From Saprospiraceae bacterium (lineage in GTDB: Bacteria; Bacteroidota; Bacteroidia; Chitinophagales; Saprospiraceae): 64,000 nt of DNA. Below are positions 7,243 to 29,556 of this stretch, piece by piece. The notes beneath the pieces are model-generated. The model saw nothing but the letters and a program-made list of their open reading frames with translations, made no database searches and was not told where the DNA came from. The stretch is taken from contig JADKAS010000006.1 of the NCBI GenBank assembly GCA_016715245.1, positions 20,870 to 84,869 on the forward strand, given 5' to 3'. Positions within the stretch are counted from its first letter, which is position 1. The number at the start of each line of letters is the position of its first letter. Position numbers and translations under genes: made by a program.

Positions 7243-10200
7243 ATGAAAGATCTCATGATTCCCCCAACTTCACGTTATTACATATCGTTTACTAAATGTG
7301 TATTAATGTTAACCTTATTGTCATTTCTGCCTATATCTCAAACAGAAGGACAAAACTGGACCCCAGTGGAAAGTTCAGAAATCACCATCCAAACAGGAAG
7401 TATAGACATTGTACCAAACAAGTTTCAACTTTACAGAGTTAATGATGCAGAAATAAAAGCTATTCTGGATGATGCACCTACCGAAGAAGAAAAAGTCGAT
7501 GGAGATATGTCCATGGGAAAAAATGTAATCATAAAACTTGGGTTACCTGACGGAGAATCAGAAGAATTTATGATTTATGAATATAAAATGATGGAATCCG
7601 GCCTAGCTTCACAATTTCCTGATTTTAAAACTTATTATGGAAATTCCATTTCAAATCCTTTACATCATGTAAGAATTGACTACACAACTCATGGTTTAAG
7701 AGCTATGATTTTATCTCCTGACGGAAGTATTTTTATCGACCACTTCCAGCGAAATGATAAAAACCATAAAATTGTTTATTATAAAAAAGATTTCAGCAAA
7801 CCCATAACCTGGTTTTGTGGTGTAAAGGGGAACGGATTTTCGGAAAGGGATAAAAATAAAATTGATTCAAGGATCGGCGATTGTGGCATCAGACACCAAT
7901 ACCGTCTTGCCATAGCTGCTACAGGTGAATATACAACATTTCACGGAGGTACAGTGGCTTTAGCCATGGCTGCCATTATGACTACCATGAACAGGGTAAA
8001 CGGTGTGTTTGAAAAGGATTGTGCGGTTAGAATGATATTGGTGGCTAATAACAGTTCAATAGTGTATACAAACCCGGCTACAGACCCATATACGAATGGA
8101 GATCCTGATATGATGATAAATCAAAATCAGGCAAACATTGATGCAGTTATTGGAAATGCCAATTACGATATAGGACACGTTTTCGGAACCAATTCGGGTG
8201 GTTTAGCCGGTTTGGGTGTGACATGTGCCGCAGGTGCCAAAGCACTTGGTGTGACAGGTAGTAGCGCACCGATAGGAGACCCATTTGATATTGACTACGT
8301 CGCTCATGAAATAGGACATCAGTTTAACGCCAATCACACACAATATAATGATTGCAACAGAAATAACCCGACTTCCGTTGAACCGGGTAGTGCTTCCACA
8401 ATTATGGGTTACGCAGGTATTTGTCCTCCTGATGTTCAAAGCAACAGCAATGATTATTTCAGTACAGCCAGTTTATATGAAATACGGCCTTTTGTGGTAA
8501 GTAATACCTGTGATGTAGAAGTTGTGGTTACAAATTCAGCGCCTTCTGTTACAGCATTGAGTAATTATTCAATACCAACTTCTACACCATTTGTACTTAC
8601 AGCTTCAGCCAGTGATCCTAATGGTATGTTGACTTATTGTTGGGAACAGATTGATATATTTACAGGTACTCTGAGGACTATGCCTCCGGCTGCTACAAAT
8701 GTGGACGGTCCTATGTTCAGGTCTTTAACTCCTATAGTGAGTCCATTGAGGTATTTCCCCAATTTACCGGACGTTTTAAATAATGTAAATCCAACATGGG
8801 AAGAATTGCCATCTGTTGGAAGGCCTATGAATTTCAGAGTCACCGTAAGAGATAATTTTGCAACTGCAGGTTGTACTGGTGAAGCACAAAATATAGTTAC
8901 TACAGTGGCTGGAACCGGACCTTTTTTGGTTACTTCCCCTAATACTGCAGTTACGTATACAGGAAATTCGTCACAAACTATTACCTGGAATGTGGCCGGC
9001 ACAACAGCAGCACCCGTTAGTTGTGCTAATGTAAATATACTTTTAACCACCGATGGAGGCACAACTTTCACTTCACTGGCGTCTAATACGGCAAATGATG
9101 GTTCTGAAAGTATAACCATTCCAAATATCACTACATCTACTGCAAGAGTCTGGATACAATGTGCCAATAACATATTTTATGATGTTTCTAATGTTAATTT
9201 TACTATTCAGGCAGCTTTACCCCCTTGTGCTGATCTGGTTTTTCCAAGTTGTACGACCGCTGTCAACATTGATTTTGCCGGTTTTGGAGGAGCAGGTTTT
9301 TCTCCTATGCCCAATGCCAATCAACTTTGCTCCAACCACTGGGCATGGACAGGCTGGAGTAATGGTAATTTAGCTTTCGGGGGTACACAAACCACGGCCA
9401 ACACAGATTACACCAGAGGAAATACGCCTGGTGGTGTAACAACAGGCGGTATTTACTCTTTAAATAACGGCGCTTTATATATACAGCCAGGAGGAAGTGA
9501 TTGGGCACCCGGTACAGCAACACTGAGGATTCAAAATACTTCGGGTTCCAACATGACGGATATGATGGTTGGCTATGACCTGCTGGTAAGAAATGATCAG
9601 GCGAGAAGTAATAGTTTTAATTTTTCTTACTCACTGGATGACATAACATATACTCCGGTTGCATCTCTGGATTTTACATCAACTGCAGCAGCAGATGCAA
9701 TGCCAACAATTGTTACTGTTCCAAGGTCAACAACATTAACCGGACTTACCCTTGCCAACAATGCATACATTTATTTCAGATGGTCAGGTGCCGATGTCGG
9801 AGGAAGTGGTTCAAGAGACGAGTTTGGTTTGGACAATCTTTCATTTACACCTGCTTGTAATAATTGCCCCAGCTTTACAAATTTTACGCCTAATAATGTT
9901 ACCGTTGTAAACAGCACATGTTCAGCACCGACTTGTATGCTTATGGGAGGTATAATAAATGCGGCAGTAAATAATTGCCCTTCAGGATCAACATTACAGT
10001 ATTCGACCGACGCCGGAATGACCTGGAGTACAACGGTTCCTGTATATGATCAGGATGGTCCTTCACAAACTGTAATCACCAGATGTAACTGTGATTTGAA
10101 CAATGCTATAAGCAGTAGTCCTAGCAATCCTGTATCCACAAGTCCGGGCACTTGTCCTCCATCATGTAACTGTACATTAAATGGTATGGTTTCTAATGTA

Positions 10201-13200
10201 GCATGTAATAATAGTGAAACAACCAATACTGCAGATGATTTTATCACTTTTGATTTAATTGTGACAGGTGGCGGCGGCAACAGTTCTATGAGTATTACTA
10301 CAACTCCGGGTACCCCTACCCCAAATTCAGCTCTTGCTTATAATGTAACTCATTCCATCACTATGCAGCCTGGTTCTGCGGGAGGTGGAAATATAATATT
10401 GTTGGCAACAGATGATAACAACAGTGATTGTTACACAACCATGATCACAGATCCGGGTACCTGTTCAAACATCGATTTCACTGTCAGTATTTCTGACCCG
10501 TGCGTTTGTAATAATGATGCCACACCAGCTCAGAATGACGGTACTTTTGATGAACAGATAACAGTTTTAGGCCCTGCTGGAGAAACCATTACAGGTACTT
10601 GTACAGGTTGTTCGCCCACTGCTTTGACATTTACTGAAACTTCACCGGGTGTATATGAGAGTAATATATTCACACATATTGATAATTTGGGTTACAATGT
10701 TAGCATAACTGCTGGTAATTCTCAGTTAAATATCGGCAATAAATGCGCTTACCCAAATGTTGCCATAGACCCTATAGGCCCTCTTTGTAATAATGGAAAT
10801 CCTGTTGCTTTGACAGCAGTGATAACCGGAGATGACGGAAGTGGAGGATATACCTGGTCTGGAACAGGTGTCAGTGGAAGTTCATTTGATCCTTTCAATC
10901 TGGCAGCAAACAATTACACCATTACCTTAAATTATGACGGCGTTGACCTAGGAAATGTGTCTCCTGACGGAGGTATAACACCGGCTTTTCCGGGATGTAT
11001 TCAGGTTGCCACAGGTTCAGTGACAGTATTGGATTCTGTTGCCATAACTCAGCCACCTAATCAAACTTTATGTGCGAATACATCAACAAACCCGGTTAAT
11101 TTTATGTCTGCTCCTTCCAATGTAAAATATAGTTGGACGAATGACAATACAGCCATTGGACTCGCAGCAAGCGGGATGGGCAATATCCCATCGTTTATAG
11201 CTACTAATCCCGGAAGCACACCCATTACGGCTAATATTACGGTAACGGCAATGGTGATGGACACTTTTAACTTTACCGGACAAGTTCAACAATATATTGT
11301 TCCTCCAGGTGTCACCTCTATCGAAATTGAGACCTGGGGAGCCCAAGGCGCCAATGGCACCGTTGGTAATGCACCCGGCAATGGTGGATTAGGAGGCTAT
11401 TCAAAAGGCACATTGGCCGTTACACCGGGAGAGACCCTATACCTTAATGTCGGTGGACAAAATGGGTTTAATGGAGGTGGTCCTGCCGGCATCCATATTG
11501 GAACAGGAGCACAAACTTTTCCCGGAAATGGTGGAGGTGGTTCAGACATTCGTCAAGGTGGAGCTGCTTTGGCAAATAGAGTTCTAGTCGCCGCAGGTGG
11601 TGGTGGTGGTGGTGCCGCAAATAATAATAGTTGTACAAGTAATGCACAAAGAAACGGAGCAGTCGGAGGTGGACTTACAGGAGCTGATGGTGCTGGCAGC
11701 GCAAATGAGTGTACTCTTCCAGCAGCAGGTGGAGGAATGGGAGCCAATCAGGTTAATGGTGGAATTGGAGGAACTTTTACCTTTAACTGTAATAACAATA
11801 CACTGCCAGGTTTTGCAGGACTTTTAGGCCAGGGGGGTGCAGGCGGTAACGGAGGAAATAACGGCTGTTTTCCCAACTCGCAAGGTGGTCCCGGCGGCGG
11901 TGGCGGCGGTGGTTATTTCGGCGGCGGCGGCGGCGGTGCAGGTTTTGGCGGCGGCGGTGGTAGTGGATCCGGCGGCGGCGGCGGCGGTGGATCATCTTAC
12001 ATTGGTGGGGTTACCAACGGCATGACTACTTCCGGAATCAAATCCGGAAATGGAAGAATTGTTATTAATCCGGGATTGTACGCAGATTGTATGCCTTCAC
12101 CAAAAACATTTACTATTACCGTAAATCCTTTGCCTGATCCTCCTGTTATTCCTAATATCACCGTTTGTCAGGGTGGTAGTACTTTGATTGTAGCTGGTAC
12201 CATCACAACACCAACAGGTCCACCGGTGTCCGTAACCTATAATTTTGAAGGGGACAATCCGGCCTCAACCACGACTAATAATATGTTTGCAACAGGAAAT
12301 AATGCCGTTATAGGTACAGGTGTCTCCACTTTGACATTCCCTCAAGGATGCGGTTCACTGGATGCGATGTCAGCAAACAACTGGTCTCAACCTACTGAAG
12401 TTGCCGCGGTGGCTAACAATGACTATTTTGAATTTGTGGTCAACAACACTTCAGCAGTAAACACCCTGGTGATTAATGGGTTTTCATTTTCTGGAAGAAT
12501 TTCAACAACCGGGCCAACCAATTGGGCATTGTACCAAGGTACTACAGCTATAGGATTTTTTGGCACTACGACATCGGCGTCAACCCCTACTCCATGTGGT
12601 AATTATACTACAAATACATTAAACTTAGTCGTCGCTCCAGCTTCAAATGCAATAATAAGAATTTATGCCTGGGGTAATACACCAGCACAGAGTACAGGAA
12701 CGTTCAGAATTGACGATGTAGTGGTTTCCGGTACTTCCAACCCTCCTTCCAACAATTTCAAATTTTATAATGTAGACCCAACCGGAGGTATGGCCACCCC
12801 AATATTTACTGGATCTCAATATGACCCAATGACTACTCCGGCTACCTCACCTCAATCCATTTGGGTTACAGAATGTTCTGCAGCCGGATGTGAAAGTCTG
12901 CCTACACGGGTGATTGTAACTGTATCCGCAAATCCAACCATAACCATACCTACCATCAACCCCTTATGCGCACCCAATTTTTTCAATATAAACAACTTCA
13001 ATTTTAATCCAAATCCACCAGGAGGAACTTTTTCATACCATAATACACTTTCAGATGCCCAAATGGATATCAACCCAATTACAAGCGGGTTAAATAACAT
13101 AAATACAACAAGGACAATTTATGTAAGATATGAACTGGCAAACAATTGTTTTACTGTGGGTACACTGCAATTTATTGTGCATCCCATGCCTCCACCACCT

Positions 13201-16200
13201 GTTGTTCCAGCCACGGTAAGTACATGCGCAGGAGAAAGCCCACTGATAAAAGTTAATATAGATAATTACCCTGTTGAATATTTATGGAATTTTGAGGGCA
13301 ACATAACTGGAAATGGTATTTCTTCCCAACCTACCATTGCAGGAAATGGTCCGGTGCAAAGTGCCGGTGCTGGTCTGAATAGTGTTGGTTTTCAAGTAGC
13401 CGGATCCGGTTGTGGTGATGCCATAACTTCTGCAGGTTATGAAGCGGGAAATATCACCCTTGCTGCAGCCGTGGCATCTCAGGAGTATTTTGAATTCTGT
13501 GTAGGCTCAGCTTTGCCAGGTATTATATATGCAGGAGTAAATGGTATTACCATCAGGCATAGAGCTTCCGGCACAGGACCTATAAACTGGGCAGTGGTTG
13601 CCTCCAACAATCTAACGACGCCTCTGGCTTCCGGTATAGTAGGTACTGGTTGTACACTTCATACAGGAGCTTTTGCTTTAAATACGGCTACTTGTTACAG
13701 AGTGTATTACTGGGGAGCAACCAGCTTAAGTGGCACCCTGAGAATCGACGAATTCAGAGTCGCTGCTAATTACCAAAATAACGCCACTTACCGGTTTTAT
13801 ACCGTTAATCCAACAACAAATCCAAATGCGACACCAGTGTTTACAGGTGTTTGCTATCAAACAAACCTGACCGTTCAAAATGGTCCAACCACCTATTGGG
13901 TTACATGTCAGAATCCGGTTACAGGTTGTGTGAGTAATCCGTCAAATGTCATAGCGCAGGTATTTCCTGACCCTGTCGTAACTGTTTTTAATTCATGCGC
14001 TGGTGGAAGTACCGTTACATTTCAGGTATCCGGCGCTACAAGTGGCACATGGGGTGTTTCCGGAGGTGGTACGATCAACCCCACCACAGGTGTGTTTACA
14101 CCCACCACAGCTGGATGTTTTACAGCCACATACTTAGCCCCGGGAAATTGTGATGATACCAAAAGTTTTGTAGTCTTTCCTTCTGCCCCTGCGGCGCCAA
14201 TGATAAGCAACACTTGTAACACATCATTCGTAGTTCCTGTGCTTCAACCCTTTGGAGGATTTACTGCACAGTATAGCTTTAATGGTGGAAATACCTGGGG
14301 TACTTCCAATACTTCACCAACAACACCTGGTTGTTATCAGGTAGTTACAAGATATATTTTAACCAATACCTGCGGAACAACTTTAGCAGGGTCTGTTGGT
14401 CCGGCTGCTTGTCAACAAAGCGGTATCAGAGAAGTTGTTATATTTCCTGCAGCTCCACCGGCACCGGTTATTTCAAATACATGTAATACTGCCATTACCA
14501 TACCTGTTTTAACAGCTGTTACCGGATTCAGACCGGAATATAGTTTTGACGGAGGTATGACATGGTCAACCAACAATGTATCTTCCACGACCCCAGGATG
14601 TTATGCGACAAGAAGCAGGTATGTACTCGCAGCAGCATGTGGAACTCCTTATCCGGTAGGAACTACGGCGCCTCCGGCTTGTCTGCAAAGTCCTGTTACC
14701 AATGCCGTTATTTATCCGGCAGCCCCGGTTATTACAATGCCTCCGGCAACTTGTATGACAAACTTTGTATTGCCAACAGTGACTCCGGTGCCTAACTTTA
14801 CCATAGAATACAGCATTAATGGAAGTTCGTTTACTTCAACCCCAATGAGTACTATGGCTCCGGGCTGTTATACCATTATAACAAGATATGTATTAACCAC
14901 TACATGCGGAGCAACACTAGCAGGATCACCAGGGCCTGTGGCTTGTGCGCAAAGCAATACAGTGATTGCCAATGTTTTACCTATACCAGATGTTTTGGAT
15001 CAACCGGACATACTCGTGTGTAATCTTGAACTTATAAGCCCTCTACCTTTTATAAGTACTGTAGCAGTACCGACCTGTCTGGGAACGAGTATAGAATATT
15101 TTTGGACAAATAGTAATCCTGATATTGGATTACCTGCTTCCGGCATGGGTAATATTCCACCTTTTACGGCTCAAAACCCAGGTTTAGCAATTATAACCGT
15201 CACACCAAGGATTACCTTAAATGGAGTTATCTGTGAAGGTACATCCATTTCATTCAATATTGTTGTTCATCAGCCTATCGCTTTGGCGTGTAATAACGGA
15301 CTCAACATTAGTGTTGACAGAAATTGTGGTATCAAGGCCTTTGTAGACATGTTTTTAGAAGGAACTTACAATGACTATTTTTATAGTGTTCGGTTTTTTG
15401 CTTACACTGGCGTTGAAATTGATATTAACGACATACATTTATTTTTGGGTACACGACTTCAATATGAGATAATTGACAATTGTAATGGAAACAGATGTTG
15501 GGGATATGTAACTTTTGAAGACAAATACCCACCGGTTATAATTTGCCCGGATTTCGAAGTAAATTGTATAGAGGAACCAAATCTTTACCTTCCAATCAAT
15601 TCACCTGATTTTATTGGTTATCCTGAAATTCAGGACAACTGTAGTGGAGCAGAAGAAAACCTTAACATGTCTTATCTGGAAACAGGAAATACTTGTAATA
15701 AGGTAATTATCAGAAGATGGCAGACTTCTGACCAAAGTGGCAACCTCTCTAATGAGTGTTTACAAACGATTAGGGTGAGGCCATTATCATTTTCGGAAAT
15801 ATTTATTCCAAATCCATTGGTTTTTCTTGAGTGTAAAACAGCTACAGACCCTGCATCTATCGTTGCTGCAACAGGTGATGTAAGAGACGGATATGCATTT
15901 GTATTGATTGACGGAGAGCCTCTTCCTTTGACAGGTCAGGTTTGTAACATCGTTGGATCTTATACTGACTTACCAATTGAAGCATGTGGACCTCACTGCC
16001 ACGGTAATATAAAAGTAATCAGAACATGGCAATTTATTGACTGGTGTCAGGGAATCGTGTCTCAGCCGGTTACTCAGTTGATCAAATCTGCTGACCTTGA
16101 GGCTCCAACTTTCATTCTGAAAGATACCATCGTAAGTACTTCACCTTGGTATTGTGCTGCTGATTTTGATCTTCCAAGACCTTGGGAACTTCATGACAAT

Positions 16201-19200
16201 TGTGATATCAACCCTACATATTATGTAAGTGGTCCTGGTATTGTTACGATCACAGGAAATCAAGTTGACGGATACAGAGCAAAAGGTGCTCCTAAAGGAC
16301 AACATATTTTCTGTTATACAGCTGAAGACTGTTGTGGTAATATTTCTACTCAGTGTATGATTGTTACCGTAGTTGACAAAACACCTCCGGTACCTTCCAC
16401 CAAACAAAATATCGTTCTTGGTTTAGTATCAGGTGGACCTGGTCAGGATGAAGGCAATGCTAAATTGTTTACTCACCACGTGGACAACTATTCTTATGAT
16501 ATGTGTTCAGCGGTAAGACTTGAAATCAGAAGACCTGCAGGTGCGCCTCAGTGTAACAATGATGGTAGAATTGACCCTGTTACAGGAAAGCCTTACAACA
16601 ACAACGTAACTTTCAACGACAACAAACCTAGATTACATCAGGATGACAACATTGATGATACAGATAATGGAGAGTTTGTTAAATTCTGTTGTGAGGATTT
16701 AAAAACAGGTGTTGACATCGACGGTGACGGCGAAGTTAATATCGGATACCATGAAGTTATTTTGAGAGTATGGGATGATGGAGATATGAATGCTCAATGG
16801 GGAAGTGCAGGTGACAACTACAACGAAAGCTGGGCTTACGTTAAAGTTGAAGACAAAGCTCCACCGGTAATTCAGTGTCCACCAAACATGACTATTCACT
16901 GTGACTGGGCTATTACGTACAGTTCTGACTTAGGTAGTGGTGCACAATCTACAGAAGGCGTTGACTTTACAAAAACAGGTCTACCTGTTGCATACGGAAC
17001 TTGTGGTCCACGTCCAATCACATTCAGAGACAATACAGGTCAGTTGAACCAGTGTAAATTAGGAAACGTAACAAGAGATTTCTTTGTAACGCCTGCAAAA
17101 GCTGGAGTAGATCCACCTTCTTGCAGACAAGTCATCACTATTTTACCAAGTACTTCTACGCAACCATGGATAGTCACTCCACCGAGTGCAGCTCCTGTGG
17201 CTATTACATGCGCTGACCCTACTGCTACAGAGATCAAAGACAACGGGCCTAAGTGGGTCAACGGACCTTGTGATGTCATCGGAGAAAACATCAAAGTTCA
17301 CAAATTTTTATTTGAAGATGGTGTTTGTATAAAATGGAGAGTTGAGTATAACTATATTAATTGGTGTTATCCTGAAGGTCATCCTGACCATGCTAGAGGA
17401 CCATACTTCAAAGACTTTATGTTCTTCGACAATAATAAGCCTGTAATCGATAATTGTGATCCTTTAATGTTTGGTGTAGATGCCAACTGCGAACACAGAT
17501 TGGTATTGACTAACAAAGCCACAGACACAGGTGGATGTAATGGTGATAACGGATGGTTGAAATGGCAGGTATTCATCGACTTATGGGCTGATGGATCAGA
17601 TGACTGGGAATTCTCAAGTTTCTTACCTGTAGGCAACGACGAGGCCAATGCAGCTAACGGAAACCTTGCTGCTATCAGAGATGATAACAATAACGGAATT
17701 CCTGATATCTATGTAGCTCCAACGGCCGAAAATGGCATTATTACGATTACCGTTCCTGAAATCATTGTTGGCAAAATGAGTAACCACAAAGTAAGCTGGA
17801 AAGTAACAGACGGATGTCACAACCACACTACTTGTCACCAACCAGTAATGGTAGTGGACAAAAAACCACCTACCCCTTACTGTCTGAGCTTAAGCACAGC
17901 ATTGATGGCTGATCCTGACGGAACAGGACCATTGAGACCAATGGTAGAATTGTGGGCTATTGACTTCAACGTAGGATCATTTGACAACTGTACACCACAG
18001 GAAGACTTGTTGTTTACATTCAATAACTGGGCACCTCAGGTTACAGATACTATTATCGATGGAAGAACAGTAAATATTGACGTTCCTCACTATTTTGATG
18101 TAAATGGTGCAGTATGGCCATATCCTACTACTAATGCAGATGTATTGTCAAGATATAATAGAGGTGATTTACAATTGTGGTTACCTAATCTTAGAAGTTC
18201 TGCAAGAGTTTGGACTGAGTCTGTCATGGCAGGAGAAAGAAAAATAGAACTTCCCGTAATGATGAGCGTATGGGATAAAAAATTCGAAGTTGATTTCTGT
18301 ATGGTTAATTTGACAATCATTTGTAATACATGTCCAATTGAAGGCAGTTCCAGAATTAGTGGTACCGTCACTACCGAGGAAGGTAAAGGAGTGGCTAATG
18401 TTGAAATAAGATTGACAACAACCGGAAATCCTTCCAACACCTCAGAAATGACCGATGTAAATGGTTATTATTCTATTCAGAATATTCAGGCTTCCTCAGG
18501 ATTACTTTATCCTTATAAGAATACAGAACATGGAAACGGAGTCAGCACCCTGGATCTTGTGCTCATTCAAAGGCATATATTGGGCATTCAGAAATTTGAA
18601 AGTCCTTATAAAATTATGGCAGCAGATGTCAATAATGATACTAAAATCAATACCGTTGATTTGGTAGAACTCAGAAAAGTTATTTTGGGCGCTTCACCTG
18701 TTTTCACCAATAAGAGCTGGAGATTTGTAGATGCCAAGGTTACCATGGATATGAATAGCGTCTTTCCTTTCTATGAGACGGTGAATGTCAATATCAACAC
18801 GGCAACGATGGACAATATGAATTATATGGCTGTTAAGATAGGTGATGTAAACGGAAGTGCATCTACAGATGTAATCAATGCACAGTCAGAAACCAGAACA
18901 GCTTCAAGACTTGATTTGACAGCAGCTGAAAGAAGCGTAGAAGCCGGTGAAACATTTGAAATAGCAGTTACGGCAGCTAACTTTAATGAAATCTTCGGAT
19001 TCCAGTATACAATGAACCTACACGGAGCGAACTTCGTAGATGTAGTTTCTGGTGCTATTGAAGTAACTGAATCAAATGTTGGCGTAATCTCAAGTGATGT
19101 AATCACGATGAGTTATGCAGCAAGAGAAGCAGTTTCTCTAAGAGCTGATGAGGTATTGTTCACCATCGTATTGAAAGCTGACAAAGCTGGTCAATTTAGT

Positions 19201-19569
19201 GACATGATCCAACTTAACTCTAATGTAACAAGAGCTGAGTCTTATGTTGGTTCTACTATCAAAGTTCAGAATATCGGATTGACAGTAGGTTCTGTTGATG
19301 CAGCAGCTCAGATTGAGTTGTTCCAAAACGAACCAAACCCATTCAAAGCAACAACAAATGTAAACTTCTTCATGCCTGAAGCAGACAATGCAAGATTGAC
19401 TGTTTACGATGTAACTGGTCGAGTAATCAACGTAAGAAACATCAATGCAGTACAAGGTTTGAATACAGAAGCATACACAAGAGAGCAATTGGGTACTTCC
19501 GGTATGTTGTATTACAAATTAGAAAGTGGTGATTTCACTGCTACTAAGAAAATGATCATCATCGAATAA
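7243..19569 (+). CDS. giant (4108 aa) T9SS-secreted multidomain protein with N-terminal metzincin/reprolysin-like zinc protease
   Basis: Single uninterrupted ORF. Order of parts: signal peptide; HEIGHQFNANH zinc site; glycine-rich domain; Ig-like/PKD-like and HYR-like repeats; carboxypeptidase-regulatory-like domain; dockerin-like and cohesin-like modules; C-terminal LFQNEPNPFKATTNVNFFMP...LTVYDVTGRVI...KKMIIIE (T9SS type-A CTD pattern). Confidence 0.9.
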   Translation: MKDLMIPPTSRYYISFTKCVLMLTLLSFLPISQTEGQNWTPVESSEITIQTGSIDIVPNKFQLYRVNDAEIKAILDDAPTEEEKVDGDMSMGKNVIIKLGLPDGESEEFMIYEYKMMESGLASQFPDFKTYYGNSISNPLHHVRIDYTTHGLRAMILSPDGSIFIDHFQRNDKNHKIVYYKKDFSKPITWFCGVKGNGFSERDKNKIDSRIGDCGIRHQYRLAIAATGEYTTFHGGTVALAMAAIMTTMNRVNGVFEKDCAVRMILVANNSSIVYTNPATDPYTNGDPDMMINQNQANIDAVIGNANYDIGHVFGTNSGGLAGLGVTCAAGAKALGVTGSSAPIGDPFDIDYVAHEIGHQFNANHTQYNDCNRNNPTSVEPGSASTIMGYAGICPPDVQSNSNDYFSTASLYEIRPFVVSNTCDVEVVVTNSAPSVTALSNYSIPTSTPFVLTASASDPNGMLTYCWEQIDIFTGTLRTMPPAATNVDGPMFRSLTPIVSPLRYFPNLPDVLNNVNPTWEELPSVGRPMNFRVTVRDNFATAGCTGEAQNIVTTVAGTGPFLVTSPNTAVTYTGNSSQTITWNVAGTTAAPVSCANVNILLTTDGGTTFTSLASNTANDGSESITIPNITTSTARVWIQCANNIFYDVSNVNFTIQAALPPCADLVFPSCTTAVNIDFAGFGGAGFSPMPNANQLCSNHWAWTGWSNGNLAFGGTQTTANTDYTRGNTPGGVTTGGIYSLNNGALYIQPGGSDWAPGTATLRIQNTSGSNMTDMMVGYDLLVRNDQARSNSFNFSYSLDDITYTPVASLDFTSTAAADAMPTIVTVPRSTTLTGLTLANNAYIYFRWSGADVGGSGSRDEFGLDNLSFTPACNNCPSFTNFTPNNVTVVNSTCSAPTCMLMGGIINAAVNNCPSGSTLQYSTDAGMTWSTTVPVYDQDGPSQTVITRCNCDLNNAISSSPSNPVSTSPGTCPPSCNCTLNGMVSNVACNNSETTNTADDFITFDLIVTGGGGNSSMSITTTPGTPTPNSALAYNVTHSITMQPGSAGGGNIILLATDDNNSDCYTTMITDPGTCSNIDFTVSISDPCVCNNDATPAQNDGTFDEQITVLGPAGETITGTCTGCSPTALTFTETSPGVYESNIFTHIDNLGYNVSITAGNSQLNIGNKCAYPNVAIDPIGPLCNNGNPVALTAVITGDDGSGGYTWSGTGVSGSSFDPFNLAANNYTITLNYDGVDLGNVSPDGGITPAFPGCIQVATGSVTVLDSVAITQPPNQTLCANTSTNPVNFMSAPSNVKYSWTNDNTAIGLAASGMGNIPSFIATNPGSTPITANITVTAMVMDTFNFTGQVQQYIVPPGVTSIEIETWGAQGANGTVGNAPGNGGLGGYSKGTLAVTPGETLYLNVGGQNGFNGGGPAGIHIGTGAQTFPGNGGGGSDIRQGGAALANRVLVAAGGGGGGAANNNSCTSNAQRNGAVGGGLTGADGAGSANECTLPAAGGGMGANQVNGGIGGTFTFNCNNNTLPGFAGLLGQGGAGGNGGNNGCFPNSQGGPGGGGGGGYFGGGGGGAGFGGGGGSGSGGGGGGGSSYIGGVTNGMTTSGIKSGNGRIVINPGLYADCMPSPKTFTITVNPLPDPPVIPNITVCQGGSTLIVAGTITTPTGPPVSVTYNFEGDNPASTTTNNMFATGNNAVIGTGVSTLTFPQGCGSLDAMSANNWSQPTEVAAVANNDYFEFVVNNTSAVNTLVINGFSFSGRISTTGPTNWALYQGTTAIGFFGTTTSASTPTPCGNYTTNTLNLVVAPASNAIIRIYAWGNTPAQSTGTFRIDDVVVSGTSNPPSNNFKFYNVDPTGGMATPIFTGSQYDPMTTPATSPQSIWVTECSAAGCESLPTRVIVTVSANPTITIPTINPLCAPNFFNINNFNFNPNPPGGTFSYHNTLSDAQMDINPITSGLNNINTTRTIYVRYELANNCFTVGTLQFIVHPMPPPPVVPATVSTCAGESPLIKVNIDNYPVEYLWNFEGNITGNGISSQPTIAGNGPVQSAGAGLNSVGFQVAGSGCGDAITSAGYEAGNITLAAAVASQEYFEFCVGSALPGIIYAGVNGITIRHRASGTGPINWAVVASNNLTTPLASGIVGTGCTLHTGAFALNTATCYRVYYWGATSLSGTLRIDEFRVAANYQNNATYRFYTVNPTTNPNATPVFTGVCYQTNLTVQNGPTTYWVTCQNPVTGCVSNPSNVIAQVFPDPVVTVFNSCAGGSTVTFQVSGATSGTWGVSGGGTINPTTGVFTPTTAGCFTATYLAPGNCDDTKSFVVFPSAPAAPMISNTCNTSFVVPVLQPFGGFTAQYSFNGGNTWGTSNTSPTTPGCYQVVTRYILTNTCGTTLAGSVGPAACQQSGIREVVIFPAAPPAPVISNTCNTAITIPVLTAVTGFRPEYSFDGGMTWSTNNVSSTTPGCYATRSRYVLAAACGTPYPVGTTAPPACLQSPVTNAVIYPAAPVITMPPATCMTNFVLPTVTPVPNFTIEYSINGSSFTSTPMSTMAPGCYTIITRYVLTTTCGATLAGSPGPVACAQSNTVIANVLPIPDVLDQPDILVCNLELISPLPFISTVAVPTCLGTSIEYFWTNSNPDIGLPASGMGNIPPFTAQNPGLAIITVTPRITLNGVICEGTSISFNIVVHQPIALACNNGLNISVDRNCGIKAFVDMFLEGTYNDYFYSVRFFAYTGVEIDINDIHLFLGTRLQYEIIDNCNGNRCWGYVTFEDKYPPVIICPDFEVNCIEEPNLYLPINSPDFIGYPEIQDNCSGAEENLNMSYLETGNTCNKVIIRRWQTSDQSGNLSNECLQTIRVRPLSFSEIFIPNPLVFLECKTATDPASIVAATGDVRDGYAFVLIDGEPLPLTGQVCNIVGSYTDLPIEACGPHCHGNIKVIRTWQFIDWCQGIVSQPVTQLIKSADLEAPTFILKDTIVSTSPWYCAADFDLPRPWELHDNCDINPTYYVSGPGIVTITGNQVDGYRAKGAPKGQHIFCYTAEDCCGNISTQCMIVTVVDKTPPVPSTKQNIVLGLVSGGPGQDEGNAKLFTHHVDNYSYDMCSAVRLEIRRPAGAPQCNNDGRIDPVTGKPYNNNVTFNDNKPRLHQDDNIDDTDNGEFVKFCCEDLKTGVDIDGDGEVNIGYHEVILRVWDDGDMNAQWGSAGDNYNESWAYVKVEDKAPPVIQCPPNMTIHCDWAITYSSDLGSGAQSTEGVDFTKTGLPVAYGTCGPRPITFRDNTGQLNQCKLGNVTRDFFVTPAKAGVDPPSCRQVITILPSTSTQPWIVTPPSAAPVAITCADPTATEIKDNGPKWVNGPCDVIGENIKVHKFLFEDGVCIKWRVEYNYINWCYPEGHPDHARGPYFKDFMFFDNNKPVIDNCDPLMFGVDANCEHRLVLTNKATDTGGCNGDNGWLKWQVFIDLWADGSDDWEFSSFLPVGNDEANAANGNLAAIRDDNNNGIPDIYVAPTAENGIITITVPEIIVGKMSNHKVSWKVTDGCHNHTTCHQPVMVVDKKPPTPYCLSLSTALMADPDGTGPLRPMVELWAIDFNVGSFDNCTPQEDLLFTFNNWAPQVTDTIIDGRTVNIDVPHYFDVNGAVWPYPTTNADVLSRYNRGDLQLWLPNLRSSARVWTESVMAGERKIELPVMMSVWDKKFEVDFCMVNLTIICNTCPIEGSSRISGTVTTEEGKGVANVEIRLTTTGNPSNTSEMTDVNGYYSIQNIQASSGLLYPYKNTEHGNGVSTLDLVLIQRHILGIQKFESPYKIMAADVNNDTKINTVDLVELRKVILGASPVFTNKSWRFVDAKVTMDMNSVFPFYETVNVNINTATMDNMNYMAVKIGDVNGSASTDVINAQSETRTASRLDLTAAERSVEAGETFEIAVTAANFNEIFGFQYTMNLHGANFVDVVSGAIEVTESNVGVISSDVITMSYAAREAVSLRADEVLFTIVLKADKAGQFSDMIQLNSNVTRAESYVGSTIKVQNIGLTVGSVDAAAQIELFQNEPNPFKATTNVNFFMPEADNARLTVYDVTGRVINVRNINAVQGLNTEAYTREQLGTSGMLYYKLESGDFTATKKMIIIE
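8305..8337 (+). other. zinc-binding motif HEIGHQFNANH of the metzincin-like catalytic domain
   Basis: cat gaa ata gga cat cag ttt aac gcc aat cac, in frame with ATG 7243. HExxHxxxxxH spacing as in metzincins, with N where G is usual. GSASTIMGYAG follows about 20 residues later as a Met-turn candidate. Confidence 0.75.
11263..12075 (+). other. glycine-rich domain (resembles the bacterial/ALK-type Gly_rich family)
   Basis: TFNFTGQVQQYIVPPGVTSIEIETWGAQGANG...GGLGGYSKGTLAVTPGETLYLNVGGQNGFNGGG...GNGGGGSDIRQGG...RVLVAAGGGGGGAANN...GGGGGGGYFGGGGGGAGFGGGGGSGSGGGGGGGSSYIGG...SGNGRIVINPG. Confidence 0.6.
11884..11990 (+). repeat. GGC/GGT codon low-complexity tract (poly-Gly coding); (GGT)6 also at 11596-11613
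   Basis: ggtggtcccggcggcggtggcggcggtggt...ggcggcggcggcggcggtgca...ggcggcggcggtggtagtggatccggcggcggcggcggcggtgg. Includes a pure (GGC)5 at 11971-11985. Confidence 0.9.
14170..14970 (+). repeat. three tandem ~89-aa Cys-containing repeats (period 267-270 nt) inside giant gene 1
   Basis: FPSAPAAPMISNTCNTSFVVPVL...YSFNGGNTWGTSN..TTPGCYQVVTRYILTNTCGTTLAG..GPAACQQS; then FPAAPPAPVISNTCNTAITIPVL...YSFDGGMTWSTNN..TTPGCYATRSRYVLAAACGT...PPACLQS; then YPAAPVITMPPATCMTNFVLPTV...YSINGSSFTSTP...APGCYTIITRYVLTTTCGATLAG..GPVACAQS. Confidence 0.85.
18535..18690 (+). other. dockerin-like module
   Basis: NGVSTLDLVLIQRHILGIQKFESPYKIMAADVNNDTKINTVDLVELRKVILG. The second half fits the dockerin Ca-loop/helix pattern DVNxDxKINxxDLxxLxKxILG. 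Confidence 0.6.
18898..19300 (+). other. cohesin-like module
   Basis: TASRLDLTAAERSVEAGETFEIAVTAANFNEIFGFQYTMNLHGANFVDVVSGAIEVTESNVGVISSDVITMSYAA...VLFTIVLKADKAG. The pattern of a strand, then G-FQ-Y/F, then a strand resembles cohesin domains often found just before T9SS CTDs. Confidence 0.5.
19309..19566 (+). other. T9SS type-A C-terminal sorting domain
   Basis: QIELFQNEPNPFKATTNVNFFMPEADNARLTVYDVTGRVINVRNINAVQGLNTEAYTREQLGTSGMLYYKLESGDFTATKKMIIIE. Confidence 0.8.
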
Positions 19570-19594
19570 AGTTTTGACTGACAACCATAGTAAA

Positions 19595-19632
19595 AGAAGC
19601 CCTGGTGGAAATTCCACCAGGGCTTCTTTTTT
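19595..19632 (+). terminator. rho-independent terminator of giant gene 1
   Basis: agaagccctggtgg (19595-19608) / loop aaatt / ccaccagggcttct (19614-19627), a perfect 14-bp stem, followed by ttttt. Confidence 0.85.
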
Positions 19633-19918
19633 AATATTGATTACCAAATATAAACTTTGGACACCACATATCACTACATCAAAATAGATATATTTTAAAA
19701 TAATTGCAACTCAAGTAATTTAAATAACATTGATTTACATATTTAATATAAATATATATAATTATAGTTTATTTTATTTGGTAGACTTAAACTATTTGTG
19801 CACCTTTACACGATTTTTACAATACCGTCGTTTCGGTAATGGTCAATATATTAAGTAAGTCTACAACTTTTGATGTTCTATATATAAATAGGCTTTTTTA
19901 ATATTTTACCAAAAGACC

Positions 19919-22900
19919 ATGAGCGTAAAACCTAATTCCCCAAAATTTAGCTTTTTAGTAATAAGCTTTTTTCTTTTTTGTTGCAGTAGTTTATTTGCAC
20001 AGTTCACTTCGAAATCAGAATTGGCAAGACAAATTTTAATATCCAGGGCAGATGAGTTTAATCTGGATATAACCTCCCTTAATCAAATGCGTCTTTCCTC
20101 AGAAACGTACAGTAGATTAAGTAAATTGAATCATGTTTATTTTGAACAGCATATTGAAGAAATTCCGGTTTATAATGCCATTCTCAATGCGCATATCACT
20201 TCAAATGATGAGTTGCTCACAATAGGCAACAGGTTTTATTCCAATGCTTTAACAAATAAATCCCTGGGGTTGCCTCTCATTCCTCAACTTGAAGCTATAT
20301 CAAGAGTTTGTAATCATTTGGGATATTCATTTAATGGCAACCTTACCATAGTACAAAACATCGGAGGTCCAACTAAAAAGATTGTGTTTGACAAAGGAAA
20401 TATATCTCTTGAAAACATTCCTGTCAATCTGGTCTGGCAACCAATTTCTGAAAATTATCTGGTTTTAGCATGGAATGTCTCTATTTATGAAGCAAGTGCT
20501 CAAAACTGGTGGAATGTCAGAATTGATGCCGTTACAGGTGAAATACTTGACCAAAATAATTGGGTGGTTCAATGTAATTTTGACATGGATTGTGGTACAG
20601 ATCACAAATCTCTTGAAAACAAGAATACTAAGCATCATTTCATTCCAAAATCTGTTCAAAACCACAATACCCAGGATATTATTGTGATCCAGGGTACAGT
20701 TGTAGTGAGCCCCATGGATGGCAGTTCCTATCGGGTTTATCCGGAACCTATAGAAAGCCCCAACCATACCTTACCACTTCCCCCGGTAGATGGAAGAACT
20801 ACAGTTAATGAACCGGCTGATGCTACAGCTTCGCCATTCGGCTGGCATGATACCAACGGAGCTATAGGTGCAGAATTTACTACTACCCAGGGAAATAATG
20901 TACACGCGTATACTGACACCAATTTTGACAATATGCCAGATCCGGGATCCAGCCCCGATGGTGGAAGTGGACTTGACTTTCTTTTTCCTTTAGACCTTAC
21001 CATGGCCCCAAGTACTTATAGACCTGCTGCAGTTACCAATTTATTTTACTGGAATAATTTTATCCATGATTTTGCCTACGCTTTTGGATTTGATGAGGTC
21101 AGTGGTAATTTTCAGCAAAACAATTATGGAAACGGTGGATTAGGCGCAGATTATGTGCTGGCTGAAGCTCAGGATGGTTCCGGAACCAATAATGCAAATT
21201 TTGCTACTCCGCCGGATGGAAACAGGCCTCGTATGCAAATGTTCATTGGAACAAATCCGACACCGGATGTTGATGGTGATTTTGACAATGGCGTAATAGC
21301 CCATGAATACGCCCACGGTATTTCCAACAGATTTACTGGTGGTCCAGCCAATACTAGTTGCCTTGGAAATCAGGAACAAATGGGAGAAGGATGGAGTGAC
21401 TTTTATGCATTAATTACGACAATAGAACCCGGAGACTTAGGTACTGATTCAAGAGGTATAGGAACGTATTTATTTGGTCAGCCGCCAAATGGTCCTGGTA
21501 TCAGACCAACCCCTATTCTACCAATATGGCTATTAACACAGCAACTTATGACAATATAAAAACACTATCTATACCACATGGTGTAGGTTACGTCTGGTGC
21601 GGTATGATTTGGGATTTATTATGGAAAATGGTTGATGTTCATGGAAATCCGGCTGGTATTAACATTGCTATAAACCTTGTAAATGAAGGGATGAGATTAC
21701 AACCGTGCAGTCCTGGCTTTGTTGACGGAAGAAACGCCATTTTAGCTGCTGACGTTGCTATGTACGGAGGTGCTAACCGTTGTTACATTTGGGAGGTTTT
21801 TGCAAGAAGAGGGCTTGGTTTCAGTGCCAATCAGGGACTTTCAACAAGCAGAAGTGATGGAACCCAAGCTTTTGACCTACCACCATTTTGTATTTTTGAT
21901 GTAACCCCTGAAGTTGTTTCCATTTGCAAACCAAATAGTGCTCAATATACTGTATCTAATGGAACAGCTGAAACATTAACTTTATCTGCAACAGGAAACC
22001 CACCAGGCACAGTTGTATCGTTTCTTACTAACCCTGTCCCAACTAACGGGACCAGTATAATGACAATTGGAAATACAGCAGCCGCAGCCAATGGAACCTA
22101 TATAATAACTGTGACAGGAACTGGTATTTCAAATACTGTTACTGCAATGGTAACCTTAATTATCCAAAGTAATGTTCCTGGTGCACCAACATTGGTCACA
22201 CCTCTTAATATGGCTATGAATCAAATCAATCCTTTGTTGACATGGAGCCCTCAACCAGAATCAGAAACTTATAGCATTGAGGTAGCTACCGATCTGGGAT
22301 TTTCCAATATTATTGCAAGTGCAACGGGTTTAACGGTAAATATATTCCAGACAAATAATTTAATGTCAAATACTACATATTACTGGCGTGTGCGGGGTGT
22401 AAATGGATGCGGAACCGGTTCATATTCACCTATATTTTCATTTACAACAGCAAACATTGCCTGTATTACAATTGCCAGCACTGATGTACCTAAAACAATT
22501 GCGCCCGATCCCCCAAGTACAACATTATCAATATTGACATTCCCTAATGTTTGTGGAATTATTACAGATGTAAATTTACGAAATCTTAATATTACGCATT
22601 CATTTGTTGGTGATCTGAATATCGAATTAATCAGTCCTATGGGCACTGTTGTCCGGGTTTTCCAACAAGCTTGTGGTGGTTCAGATAATATCTTAATTAA
22701 TTATGACGACGAAGCAGCTTCGCCAACGATTCCTTGTCCACCAACAAACAATGGATTTTACATTCCATTTGCTGCTTTATCAGCTTTCGACGGGCAATCG
22801 CCTTCGGGAGTCTGGACTTTGCGTATTCTTGATGAAGCTCCTTTAGATGGTGGAACTTTAAATGCCTGGAGCCTGGAACTGTGTTATGCAAATACATTTA

Positions 22901-25900
22901 CTCCAGCTCCTATTGTTGTTACAGATAATTCCGGTAATACAGCAAATGATGGTATTTTGTGTCAGGGAGGAACAGCCACACTTACTGCTTCCGGAGGCAC
23001 TTCATACCTATGGAGCACAAATGAAACTACACCAGCGATTTCTGTCAACACCTCAGGCATGTATTCAGTTACAATAACAAGCGGAAGCTGTTCAGGTAGT
23101 GTATCAACCACCATAGTTGTCAATCCGAATCCAACGATTTCGGGACCGACATCAGTCGCTGTGGGGGCAAGTATAAATATTATGGGATCGGGTACCCCAG
23201 CCATGACAAATCCTTATATCTCATCCAACACTTTAATTGCTACAGTAAATAATGTGGGTTTAGTAACAGGCATAGCCCCAGGAATGACAGTAATTACATA
23301 TACAGATATTAATGGTTGTACTTCAACAAGAACAATAACAGTTTCTGCAATTACAACCTCACTTCCACCAAACGGAACTGCAAATGTTGCATGTCCGGCA
23401 TTGGCAATAGCTCCAACTCCACCAATAAATATTACGCCAATAAATCAAACTTGTCCTTTGGTACAACCTGTAGGCCCTACCATCACAAACAACCCTAATC
23501 CAATTAGTTGTGAAGGCACAAGGGAGTATGCTTATACTTACACCGATTGTGCAAATAATTTTATAGGAACATGGACGTTTACTTACACAATTGAGCGCCA
23601 ACCATTTACTTTACCAGCCAATGGCGCTGCAACTGTGGCTTGTCCTGCCCTGGCAGTTGCTCCTACTCTACCGACTGTTACAAGTAATTGTGGTGAAGTG
23701 TTAACTCCGGCTGCTCCTGTAGTTACGAATGTCCCAAATCCTTTGACTTGTGAAGGAACCAGAACCTATGCTTATACTTACACAGACTGTGAAGGCAATA
23801 CGGCTGTATGGAGTTTCGTTTATACTGTCGAAAGATCACCTTTCACAGTACCTGCAAATGGTAATGCAACAGTGGCATGTCCGGCTTTAGCAGTGACTCC
23901 TACTCCACCGGCAGTTTCAAGCAATTGTGGTGAGGTTATCACACCTACCGGCCCGGTAATTACCAATACTCCTAACCCTTTGACTTGTGAAGGAACCAGA
24001 ACCTATGCTTATACTTACACAGACTGTGAAGGCAACTTTTCTGTCTGGAGTTTTGTATATACCATAGAACGAAATCCATTTACAGTACCTGCAAACGGAA
24101 CTGCAACTGTTGCCTGTCCTGCTTTGGCAGTTGCTCCAACCCCACCAGTAGTTTTGAGTAATTGTGGAGAGACTTTGACGCCAACAAGTCCGGTAATTAC
24201 GAATGTTCCAAACCCAATCACTTGTGAAGGAACCAGAACCTATGCTTATACTTACACAGACTGTGAAGGCAAACTGCTGTACTGGAAGTTTCGTTTATAC
24301 TGTCGAAAGATTACCTTTCACTGTACCTGTAAAATGGTAATGCATCAGTGGCATGTCCGGCTTTAGCAGTGACTCCTACTCCACCGGCAGTTACAAGCAA
24401 TTGTGGTGAGGTTTTAATACCAACAGGCCCGGTAATTACCAATACTCCCAACCCTCTGACTTGTGAAGGCACAATCACCTATTCATATACATTTACGGAT
24501 TGTGAAGGTAATACTGCTGCCTGGAATTTTATTTATACGGTGGAAAGATTACCTTTTACTGTTCCCGCAAATGGAGCATCAATTATTTGCGGACTCGCGC
24601 AGGCAACTCAACCGGTTCCTCCTGTAATTACCAGTAATTGTGGTGAGATTCTAACTCCATCTGGACCAGTTAGAACTGATGTAATAAACAATGGTGGAGG
24701 AACCCGTACGTATACCTGGAACTACACTGACTGCGAAGGCAACACAGCTGGATGGAATTATGTATATACTATAAACCCGATTCCTGTTATTACCCTTCAG
24801 CCTGAAGACCAATCAATATGTATTGGTAGCGACGCCACATTTGTGGTATCTGCAACCGCTCCAGCACCGGCTACGCTTGGTTACCAATGGCAAAGATTTT
24901 CAGGTGGAGTTTGGAATGACATCCCTGGTGAAACAAATGCAACCCTGATTATCACAAATGTTGCAGCTGTGGATAATGAATCTTTATTCAGATGCATAGT
25001 GAGTAGTATAAACCTTAATGGTGTCAACTGCCCGGTAATATCTGATGAAGCGGTACTTTTTGTTCATATCCCGGTTGCACTCGCCTGTAATGACCATGTA
25101 CGCATCAGTGTAGATCAGGAATGTTCAATAAAATCTTATGTTGATATGTTTTTAGAAGGAACATATAATTTTAACTTTTACAGCGTTACCTTTAAAACAG
25201 ATGGTGGTGTCGAAATCGACATAAACGACATTCATTTATTTTTGAATCAAAGATTGAGACACGAAATTATTGATATATGCAATGGTAATAGATGCTGGGG
25301 TTATGTAACTTTCGAGGACAAATACCCGCCTGTTTTAAGTTGTCCTGATGTTACCATTTCATGTTTGGAGCAGGATCGATTATTCCTTCCTATTGACAAC
25401 CCTGATTTTATTGGCTTACCTGAATTGTCAGAAAATTGTGGAGATGCTTTGGAAAATCTCCATTACAACTATCTGGAAACAGGAAATACTTGTAATAAGG
25501 TAATTATCAGAAGGTGGCAGACGTCTGACCAAAGTGGCAACCTCTCCAATGAGTGTGTTCAAACTGTCACCGTTAATCCTCTTTCTTTCTCTGATGTATT
25601 CGTTCCAAATCCATTGGTTTTTCTTGAGTGTAAAACAGCTACAGACCCTGCATCTATCGTTGCTGCAACGGGTGATGTAAGAGACGGATATGCATTTGTA
25701 TTGATTGACGGAGAGCCTCTTCCTTTGACAGGTCAGGTTTGTAATATCGTTGGATCTTATACTGACTTACCAATTGAAGCATGTGGACCTCACTGTCATG
25801 GTAATATCAAAGTAATCAGAACATGGCAATTTATTGACTGGTGTCTGGGAATCGTTTCCGCTCCGGTTACTCAGTTGATCAAGTCTGCTGACCTTGAGGC

Positions 25901-29384: not shown

Positions 29385-29409
29385 AGTTTTGACTGACAAC
29401 CATAGCAAA

Positions 29410-29447
29410 AGAAGCCCTGTTGGAAATTCCACCAGGGCTTCTTTTTT
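29410..29447 (+). terminator. rho-independent terminator of giant gene 2 (copy of 19595-19632)
   Basis: agaagccctgttgg / aaatt / ccaccagggcttct followed by ttttt. One stem mismatch relative to copy A (g to t at 29420). Confidence 0.8.
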
Positions 29448-29556
29448 AATATTAAAAACTAATTTTTTACAACATTTAACAATAAAATTCACAAATCAAA
29501 ACCTTGAAAAATATCCAACATATAGAAAAAAATATATTTTATACTGTAAATTTTTA

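Follow-up and report, generated by a model that had tools for sequence, protein, structure and literature searches.

How can one short segment of a repeated gene remain ancient while the sequence on either side of it is nearly identical between the copies? The question is raised by two neighbouring genes, here called A and B, in a 64,000-nucleotide stretch of the forward strand of a wastewater Saprospiraceae bacterium genome (GenBank assembly GCA_016715245.1, contig JADKAS010000006.1, positions 20,870 to 84,869), which we refer to as the window. The 3' parts of A and B form a direct repeat with a spacing of about 9.8 kb, and a tblastn search of the same genome (G000, a metagenome-assembled genome, or MAG, of 36 contigs, 4.32 Mb and 36.5% GC) located a third paralogue, C, on another contig (C7:125733-130042). 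The heads of the three genes differ, an M12B protease in A, an M36 protease in B and a PKD-like head in C, and all three have a common stalk and tail of about 1300 amino acids (a shared tail of 3.9 kb) that is 94-100% identical within the genome. Judging by their domains, the products are probably giant surface proteins secreted by the type IX secretion system (T9SS). The reading that we favour, and consider likely, is that recurrent gene conversion between the copies keeps the shared stalk and tail of A, B and C alike and that one complete domain inside the converted tract, the island, is kept in two old versions, alpha in A and beta in B and C. The main features, with pS the proportion of synonymous differences, are as follows.

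Gene A, 7243-19569, + strand: 4108 amino acids; M12B reprolysin-like head, ALK/LTK-type glycine-rich domain, immunoglobulin (Ig)-like repeats, shared stalk and tail (open reading frame list, Pfam).
Gene B, 19919-29384, + strand: three open reading frames (19919-21559, 21526-24366 and 24348-29384); M36 fungalysin head, P-domain, HYR_4C repeats, shared stalk and tail (open reading frames, Pfam).
Upstream homogenised stalk of A, 15800-18335, + strand: partner in B at 25597-28135; cysteine-rich Ig/HYR-like domains.
Alpha-type island in A, 18336-18828, + strand: 493 nt; predicted to be one whole domain, tail-model residues 17-180; pS 0.75 against B.
Beta-type island in B, 28136-28643, + strand: 508 nt; copy C has the same version (G000:C7:128797-129304).
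Downstream homogenised part of A, 18829-19637, + strand: partner in B at 28644-29452; cohesin-like domain, T9SS sorting domain, stop codon and shared 3' end.

Between A and B, the transition from the flanks to the island is abrupt. The left flank (18251-18335 in A, 28051-28135 in B) is 95% identical and ends in ...TTGTAATACATGTCC, and from 18829/28644 onwards the identity is 97% across 300 nt. At the nucleotide level, the upstream stalk as a whole is 93.7% identical, with identical runs of up to 232 nt, and the downstream part 97.7% identical, the identity running about 60 nt beyond the stop codon. By the Nei-Gojobori method, pS is 0.099 in the upstream flank (17212-18336; synonymous divergence, dS, 0.106) and 0.054 in the downstream flank, compared to 0.752 in the island, where synonymous sites are saturated and nonsynonymous divergence (dN) is 0.51. 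Among the codons that specify the same amino acid in A and B, 44 of 75 differ in the island and 25 of 555 in the flanks (Fisher p = 1e-29); for example, VSTLDLVLIQRHIL, encoded at 18541 in A and at 28356 in B, differs in 11 of its 14 codons. When the same method is applied to a protein-guided codon alignment in a sliding 40-codon window, dS is 0.0-0.1 from about 15800 to 18335, with patches that reach 0.3-0.5, pS is 0.65-0.96 within 18336-18828, with an abrupt step at both borders, and dS is again 0.0-0.1 downstream of 18829. A previous reading of this DNA from the sequence only had described the segment as an unconverted window with saturated synonymous divergence; the coordinates, the lengths of 493 and 508 nt and the 11-codon example that it gave are exact, and the calculation per window bears out its claim that dS is higher in the island than in the flanks. 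The N-terminal segments of the two versions, which the same reading called unrelated-looking, are actually homologous: they are 26% identical, their framework residues align across 21 family members, and the same beta-strands are predicted in both.

The third copy places this divergence in context. When the three copies are aligned at the nucleotide level, B and C agree at 97-100% across the island, and A stands apart at 43-77%; the islands of B and C, both beta, share 99.2% of their nucleotides. From about 18030 to the stop codon (19569 in A coordinates), B and C are 95-100% identical, and therefore the last exchange between these two genes took the island along, in a tract at least 1.5 kb long. 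The divergence peak, at 0.5 kb, is narrower than this latest tract. Elsewhere in the same alignment the stalks form a mosaic, A agreeing with C and differing from B at 16535-16590, and A agreeing with B and differing from C at 15695 and 17312-17430, as would be expected of repeated conversion among three copies.

Close orthologues of the three genes were found in two of the sampled genomes, G014 and G009, only. G014, from a sister species, has the same layout, with A' (4361 amino acids), B' (3347 amino acids) 10 kb downstream and C' (2047 amino acids) on another contig; the heads are orthologous to those of G000, with amino acid identities of 66-72% between A and A', 72-78% between B and B' and 40% between C and C', and the neighbouring genes are syntenic. 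In bins of 90 columns, the identity of the flanks is 0.94-1.00 within G000 and within G014 and 0.62-0.91 between them, and in both genomes it collapses at the same place (about 18315-18835 in A coordinates). The odd copy in G014 is C', which differs from A' and B'.

Phylogenetic trees built with IQ-TREE from 21 sequences, separately for the island and the flanks, are strongly incongruent. In the island tree, the sequences group by type, with an alpha clade that joins g0_A to (g14_A, g14_B, g9_x) with support of 100/99 and a beta clade that joins (g0_B, g0_C) to (g14_C, g9_C) with support of 96/90 (g0, g14 and g9 stand for G000, G014 and G009). In the flank tree, they group by genome, (g0_A, g0_B, g0_C) at 100/100 and all G014 and G009 copies together at 100/99. 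In approximately unbiased (AU) tests, with p-values that are post hoc, the by-genome clade is rejected by the island (p = 7e-4) and the alpha and beta clades are rejected by the flanks (p = 2e-47 and 4e-42), the differences being large, at 28 log-likelihood units for the island and about 800 for the flanks. The alpha/beta split therefore predates the speciation, and the flanks were homogenised later in each lineage, in agreement with the earlier suggestion of old paralogues whose flanks were made alike afterwards. In the flanks, dS is 0.05-0.13 within G000 and 0.19-0.31 within G014, and 0.86-1.06 between the species; as judged from these alignments, the flanks evolve in concert, by interlocus gene conversion.

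Although the M36 heads of B and B' are orthologous, B has the beta type in G000 and the alpha type in G014, which implies that the domain was replaced as a unit at least once. Gene A keeps alpha and gene C keeps beta in both species. Furthermore, the alpha islands of A' and B' in G014 differ by a dS of 0.62, compared to 0.27 in their flanks; thus, conversion affects the island less often than the flanks even between copies of one type. The proposal that something keeps this segment from being converted accordingly holds in part: the island is exempt from the piecemeal conversion seen in the flanks, but it moves as a whole domain, as in the identity of B with C here and the likeness of B' to A' in G014.

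Beyond these species, the island is present in at least three others of the genus: with the same borders, it recurs within G014, G046, G045 and G010, and additional tails were compared for the last three (seven copies in G010, four in G045 and two in G046). In G046, identity drops from 0.93-0.99 to 0.51-0.77 in the island, and the synonymous contrast between island and flanks is significant in both G014 (Fisher p = 3e-15) and G046 (p = 4e-22). Genomes G010 and G045 have at least seven and at least four copies of the stalk subfamily, respectively, with three to four island types each, and some G010 copies have common flanks but different islands (g10_3 compared to g10_1/2); these copies suggest the same process with more types.

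Two further features of the repeat lie outside the island.

Left edge of the repeat, 15262-15640, + strand: synonymous sites saturated, pS 0.81-0.92; dN about 0.2, protein conserved (sliding dS and dN).
Small second island, 18212-18268, + strand: A differs from B and C, which agree; 60-63% identity, 3-nt indel (three-way identity bins, indel list).

The left edge shows the duplication in its old, unconverted state. On this side, homogenisation sets in at about 15650-15800 in G000 and at about 15985 in G014, and hence the extent of concerted evolution is not fixed. The second patch, located 70 nt upstream of the island, reads ESVM-AGERKIELP in A and DVVFTGGTNKADVP in B and C; the corresponding patch in G014 pairs B' with C', unlike the island, which indicates a recombination breakpoint between the patch and the island.

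What the island encodes was examined with Pfam, with family profiles and with an AlphaFold2 model of the last 426 amino acids (64-sequence family alignment; mean pLDDT 81, pTM 0.71), and the relevant features are listed here.

Dockerin part of the island, 18535-18699, + strand: Pfam Dockerin_1 (PF00404), 27.9-31.9 bits in A, cut-off 22.9.
Cohesin-like domain of A, about 18895-19287, + strand: family profile matches cohesins of the PDB.
T9SS C-terminal sorting domain of A, about 19351-19560, + strand: Por_Secre_tail (PF18962), 31.6 bits, cut-off 27.
Five strands, tail residues 22-76 (AlphaFold2 model).
Three helices, tail residues 87-132, namely 87-98, 106-112 and 122-132 (AlphaFold2 model).
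Three strands, tail residues 144-183 (AlphaFold2 model).
Second beta domain, tail residues 203-333 (AlphaFold2 model).
Third beta domain, tail residues 355-424 (AlphaFold2 model).

In B, the dockerin scores 26.4-30.1 bits and the sorting domain 27.9 bits, against the same cut-offs. The model predicts a beta-sandwich of eight strands, into which a type-I dockerin is inserted after strand 5 and before strand 6. A carboxypeptidase-regulatory-like match (CarboxypepD_reg, PF13620) in alpha is marginal and covers positions 2-47 of the 82 in the profile, since the fold is broken up by the dockerin. Its score is 32.8 bits for the alpha fragment (cut-off 32.3) and 28.0 in a longer query, and Pfam gives no match to this family in beta. 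Given that the island covers tail residues 17-180 and the modelled domain residues 22-183, the island appears to equal one whole structural domain, the first of the tail, and each of its borders falls inside a conserved motif, CNTCP on the left and AVKIGDVNG on the right. In profile searches, the family alignment matched PDB dockerins at positions 84-144 (E 7e-7 to 4e-3) and PDB cohesins at positions 208-332 (E 2.8e-4 to 2e-3). The Pfam cohesin family (PF00963) has no match at E < 0.01 on the window proteins and is among the precomputed assignments of some homologues; in Foldseek searches, cohesins (2w1n, 5lxv, 4uyp and 2jh2) appear among generic Ig-like structures, and for the whole tail the matches are mostly to generic Ig-like and Fab structures, the cohesin ones alone being specific. 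The combined profile and model evidence points to a tail that consists of the beta-sandwich with its inserted dockerin, then the cohesin-like domain and then the sorting domain. Between alpha and beta, amino acid identity is 80% in the dockerin (pS 0.79), 26% in the N-terminal half of the sandwich (pS 0.67) and 35% in its C-terminal half (pS 0.84), and the first dockerin helix, NGVSTLDLVxIQRHILG, is nearly invariant across 64 family members.

Every one of the 24 genomes sampled from the genus has this tail, in 14-35 places each, and 16 other families of the order lack it almost entirely. The module, apparently one for surface anchoring, has thus undergone a lineage-specific expansion on many different heads. 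The genome under study has about a dozen more distant family members that carry this tail, and further copies of the tail occur at 47823-48116 of the window and on other contigs of G000. The records of the relatives describe Saprospiraceae MAGs, many of them from Danish wastewater plants.

How the two versions persist is suggested by the sequence relationship between them. Alpha and beta are 53% identical and are separated by indels of 2, 2 and 15 nt; the longest identical run within the island is 20 nt and the next is 9 nt, and runs in the flanks reach 129-250 nt. Without long identical runs, and with indels, strand invasion and the resolution of a tract would be impossible inside the island, so that conversion tracts starting in the flanks would halt at CNTCP and AVKIGDVNG. 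The domain would be swapped only as a unit, by a long tract with anchors in both flanks, which is what the pairs B and C, and B' and A', would reflect. Within types, omega is 0.09 for B and C, 0.11 for A' and B' and 0.04 for C' compared to the C copy of G009, with an overall span of 0.04-0.13; each type is therefore subject to purifying selection, and the island is not a hypervariable segment shaped by an arms race. Because each version is under such selection, hybrid domains are probably filtered out. Both types are kept in both species, a situation that selection may also favour. We infer both the heterology barrier as the mechanism and any selective maintenance from these patterns.

Several considerations weigh against this reading. 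All genomes are MAGs, the Danish set appears to have been assembled from long reads, and where repeats are nearly identical, polishing with short reads could add or remove some fine-scale mosaic sites, shift paralogue variants from one copy to another and produce some of the strain differences that resemble a paralogue; individual mosaic sites therefore deserve little weight. The clades submitted to the AU tests were named after the tree had been seen. The alpha clade was derived from 164 fast-evolving codons, with a proportion of nonsynonymous differences (pN) of 0.31 between the alpha islands of G000 and G014 as opposed to 0.36-0.37 between alpha and beta; shared indels and motifs back this clade. 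Whole-domain swaps in both lineages imply that the barrier is leaky, and with just three copies and two to four lineages, chance could account for the survival of both types. Finally, the present results would be compatible with selection as well as with a purely mechanical heterology barrier, and dN/dS across types is uninformative on positive selection because synonymous sites are saturated.

The alternative that fares best attributes the pattern to mechanical escape in which selection for diversity plays no part: the weakly constrained halves of the sandwich would have drifted below the identity required for recombination and then diverged without limit, and both types would persist only through the rarity of whole-domain tracts. 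The short identical runs and the 15-nt indels of the island are compatible with such an escape, as is the family-wide observation that the beta-sandwich parts are the least conserved in the tail; the same domain escapes in every species examined, as an intrinsically fast region would, and B and C are of one type despite their different heads. We nevertheless lean against this possibility, tentatively, considering that each type is under clear purifying selection (omega 0.04-0.13), that the tract of at least 1.5 kb between B and C spanned the island, so that the loss of a type is mechanically possible, and that alpha in A and beta in C were retained in both species while single-copy genes reached synonymous saturation.

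A more elaborate scenario, which we regard as unlikely, would treat alpha, beta and the additional types elsewhere as discrete, selected compatibility types that decide which of the 14-35 tail-bearing T9SS proteins of a cell join, via dockerin-cohesin contacts, into a surface assembly; the homogenised flanks would then serve as recombination arms that re-deal the types among heads. Alongside it, as an independent and likewise unusual proposition, stalk DNA may have passed between the species after their split.

The sequence-only reading had proposed that the segment specifies the partner or cargo of each protein, and the corresponding hypothesis, under which the island sets dockerin-cohesin specificity or the pairing of heads with cargo and selection keeps the types apart, seems quite improbable. 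It is in line with the location of the dockerin inside the island and of the cohesin-like domain next to it, and islands of divergence in converted paralogues are, in the account of Teshima and Innan's work given in PMC3728101, a predicted sign of selection for a functional difference. However, the dockerin helices are 80% identical between alpha and beta, with the first helix essentially invariant in the family, and the adjoining cohesin is homogenised, such that all three proteins carry the same one. Moreover, the type does not track the head: B and C share a type with different heads, and the M36 protein B has beta here and alpha in G014.

Conspecific assemblies bear on whether alpha entered A through misassembly or through recent horizontal transfer. 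Protein A belongs to a 90% cluster of 22 members, which come from several conspecific MAGs. Six A orthologues that include the tail each depart from this A at 7-25 of the last 1060 amino acids; of these 78 differences, 54 match the residue of B or C, and the island contains none. At the nucleotide level, alpha is identical (493 of 493 nt) in GCA_016718895.1, GCA_016704045.1 and GCA_016702905.1, and beta (508 of 508 nt) in the two of these that reach gene B, while the adjacent kilobase of A differs at 7-20 sites between conspecific assemblies. The strain background, apart from hot patches in the stalks, is only 0-4 differences per 500 nt, so that the lack of differences in the island is plain background rather than evidence; the patchy, paralogue-like polymorphism of the flanks is what continuing conversion would be expected to leave.

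A MAG of 36 contigs and a repeat long enough to confuse assemblers leave room for an artefact, and GC content at third codon positions (GC3) is slightly higher in alpha (0.38) than in beta (0.30). Yet alpha is in frame at the same place of A in at least three independent conspecific MAGs, and the recurrence of the same junctions in independent assemblies excludes a misassembled insertion. A foreign origin by composition was considered and rejected, as a GC3 of 0.38 lies inside the 0.24-0.40 range of gene A itself. Alpha also has orthologues in G014 and G009, and its nearest relatives in the databases have 49-51% protein identity; conspecific copies aside, nothing closer was found among 5.8 billion proteins. 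The search of the genome for further stalk paralogues that might be donors yielded C, which holds the version of B, and tblastn and blastn detected no donor for the version of A in this genome, the best nucleotide match being 75% over 161 nt, in B and C, and the more distant family members reaching 47% at most at the amino acid level. The suggestion that the version of A was imported from a third paralogue thus finds no match among the extant paralogues of the genome, and this version is the orthologue of the alpha of the sister species. Taken as a whole, misassembly or recent acquisition is very improbable. Targeted diversification by a diversity-generating retroelement, a cassette or a shufflon, which a sharply bounded variable segment between conserved sequences in surface proteins might bring to mind, is hardly credible and was ruled out by the substitution spectrum and the stability among strains: substitutions are symmetric across the twelve classes with no adenine bias, the genome contains no template-like near copy (B and C are best, at 75% over 161 nt), and the types are identical across strains and under purifying selection.

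Concerted flanks around an old, two-version domain, the reading that we prefer, have parallels in known systems. In Helicobacter pylori, babA/babB (Pride and Blaser 2002, in the form in which PMC2795765 cites it) and homA/homB (PMC2795765) combine a concerted segment with a divergent one that defines the alleles. As in these cases, we observe surface paralogues in which one segment (the 3' one in H. pylori) clusters by strain through intragenomic conversion, a divergent segment that falls into a few conserved allelic types, and exchange of whole segments between loci. Here, however, the divergent part is an internal 0.5-kb island that is converted on both sides and equals one predicted domain, the types predate a speciation, with saturated dS, and the proteins are putative T9SS cargo of environmental Bacteroidota, with no known context of antigenic variation.

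Islands of divergence in converted duplicates are a recognised pattern, analyzed by Teshima and Innan (2004, 2008) and described, in the summary given in PMC3728101, for RHCE/RHD, opsins and yeast heat-shock duplicates. The present case resembles those described there in its narrow peak of paralogue divergence within a homogenised pair and in occasional conversion across the island that creates new combinations. By the same account, such islands usually involve few selected sites and no sequence barrier, in contrast to the saturated island with indels analyzed here; a sequence barrier is present in it, at 53% identity, with indels and a longest run of 20 nt, and heterology alone could maintain the island. 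Long-lasting concerted evolution in prokaryotes has been surveyed (PMC6053082) and has been described for the mtrA duplicates (PMC4632066); to the extent that these sources describe them, the cases share with ours that paralogues within a genome are more alike than orthologues between species, across deep divergences, and differ from it in being mostly whole housekeeping genes. With respect to the protein modules, the tail is comparable to non-cellulosomal cohesin-dockerin modules (with cellulosome components such as PDB 2vn5, 4uyp and 2ozn as structural reference), given the Dockerin_1 score above cut-off, the profile matches to solved dockerins and cohesins and the cohesins among the Foldseek matches. 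Unlike in the cellulosome references, the dockerin here would be inserted in a beta-sandwich, in the same polypeptide as the cohesin-like domain and beside a T9SS sorting domain, with neither scaffoldin nor cellulase context, and its binding to cohesin is a prediction.

The locus does not represent a new kind of system but illustrates, cleanly and in a bacterium, an evolutionary pattern that is already known. What it adds is the correspondence of the island with a domain, conversion on both sides, trans-species types and the replication of the pattern in several species, so that concerted evolution and long-term divergence can be followed side by side in bacteria at the resolution of a single domain. 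It offers a usable natural system to determine how far heterology alone, as opposed to selection, shields a domain from gene conversion. It also draws attention to an uncharacterised tail, present 14-35 times per genome in one genus of activated-sludge Saprospiraceae, that may serve to arrange secreted proteases at the cell surface. The results also carry a warning for annotation, namely that trees of the stalks of these genes reflect genome membership and not orthology.

Between species, the stalk (16000-18250 and 18830-19566) has a pS of 0.37-0.70 (mean of about 0.53) between G000 and G014. For 20 syntenic pairs of single-copy genes the range is 0.61-0.82, and for the island and the pre-stalk region it is 0.69-0.81; thus, the homogenised stalk is less diverged between the species than either the genome background or the island. 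It is possible that stalk DNA passed between the species after the split, or that selection on weakly selected sites is stronger in a converting family. Theory attributed to Mano and Innan (2008) is said to predict such more effective selection.

The reading frame of B is broken at 21510-21560 and 24290-24366 of the window, and C is split in two at G000:C7:127566. In conspecific assemblies, B is broken elsewhere (into 2579 and 548 amino acids in assembly L117, and into 1318, 124 and 1678 in L118); because the positions differ, the breaks in B and C are probably errors of long-read assembly and not pseudogenisation. In the head of A, at 8000-10500, following the M12B protease domain, we observed 36-95 differences per 500 nt from L117, against a background of 0-4, and no such patch in the comparison with L118; this looks like a strain-specific import by recombination.

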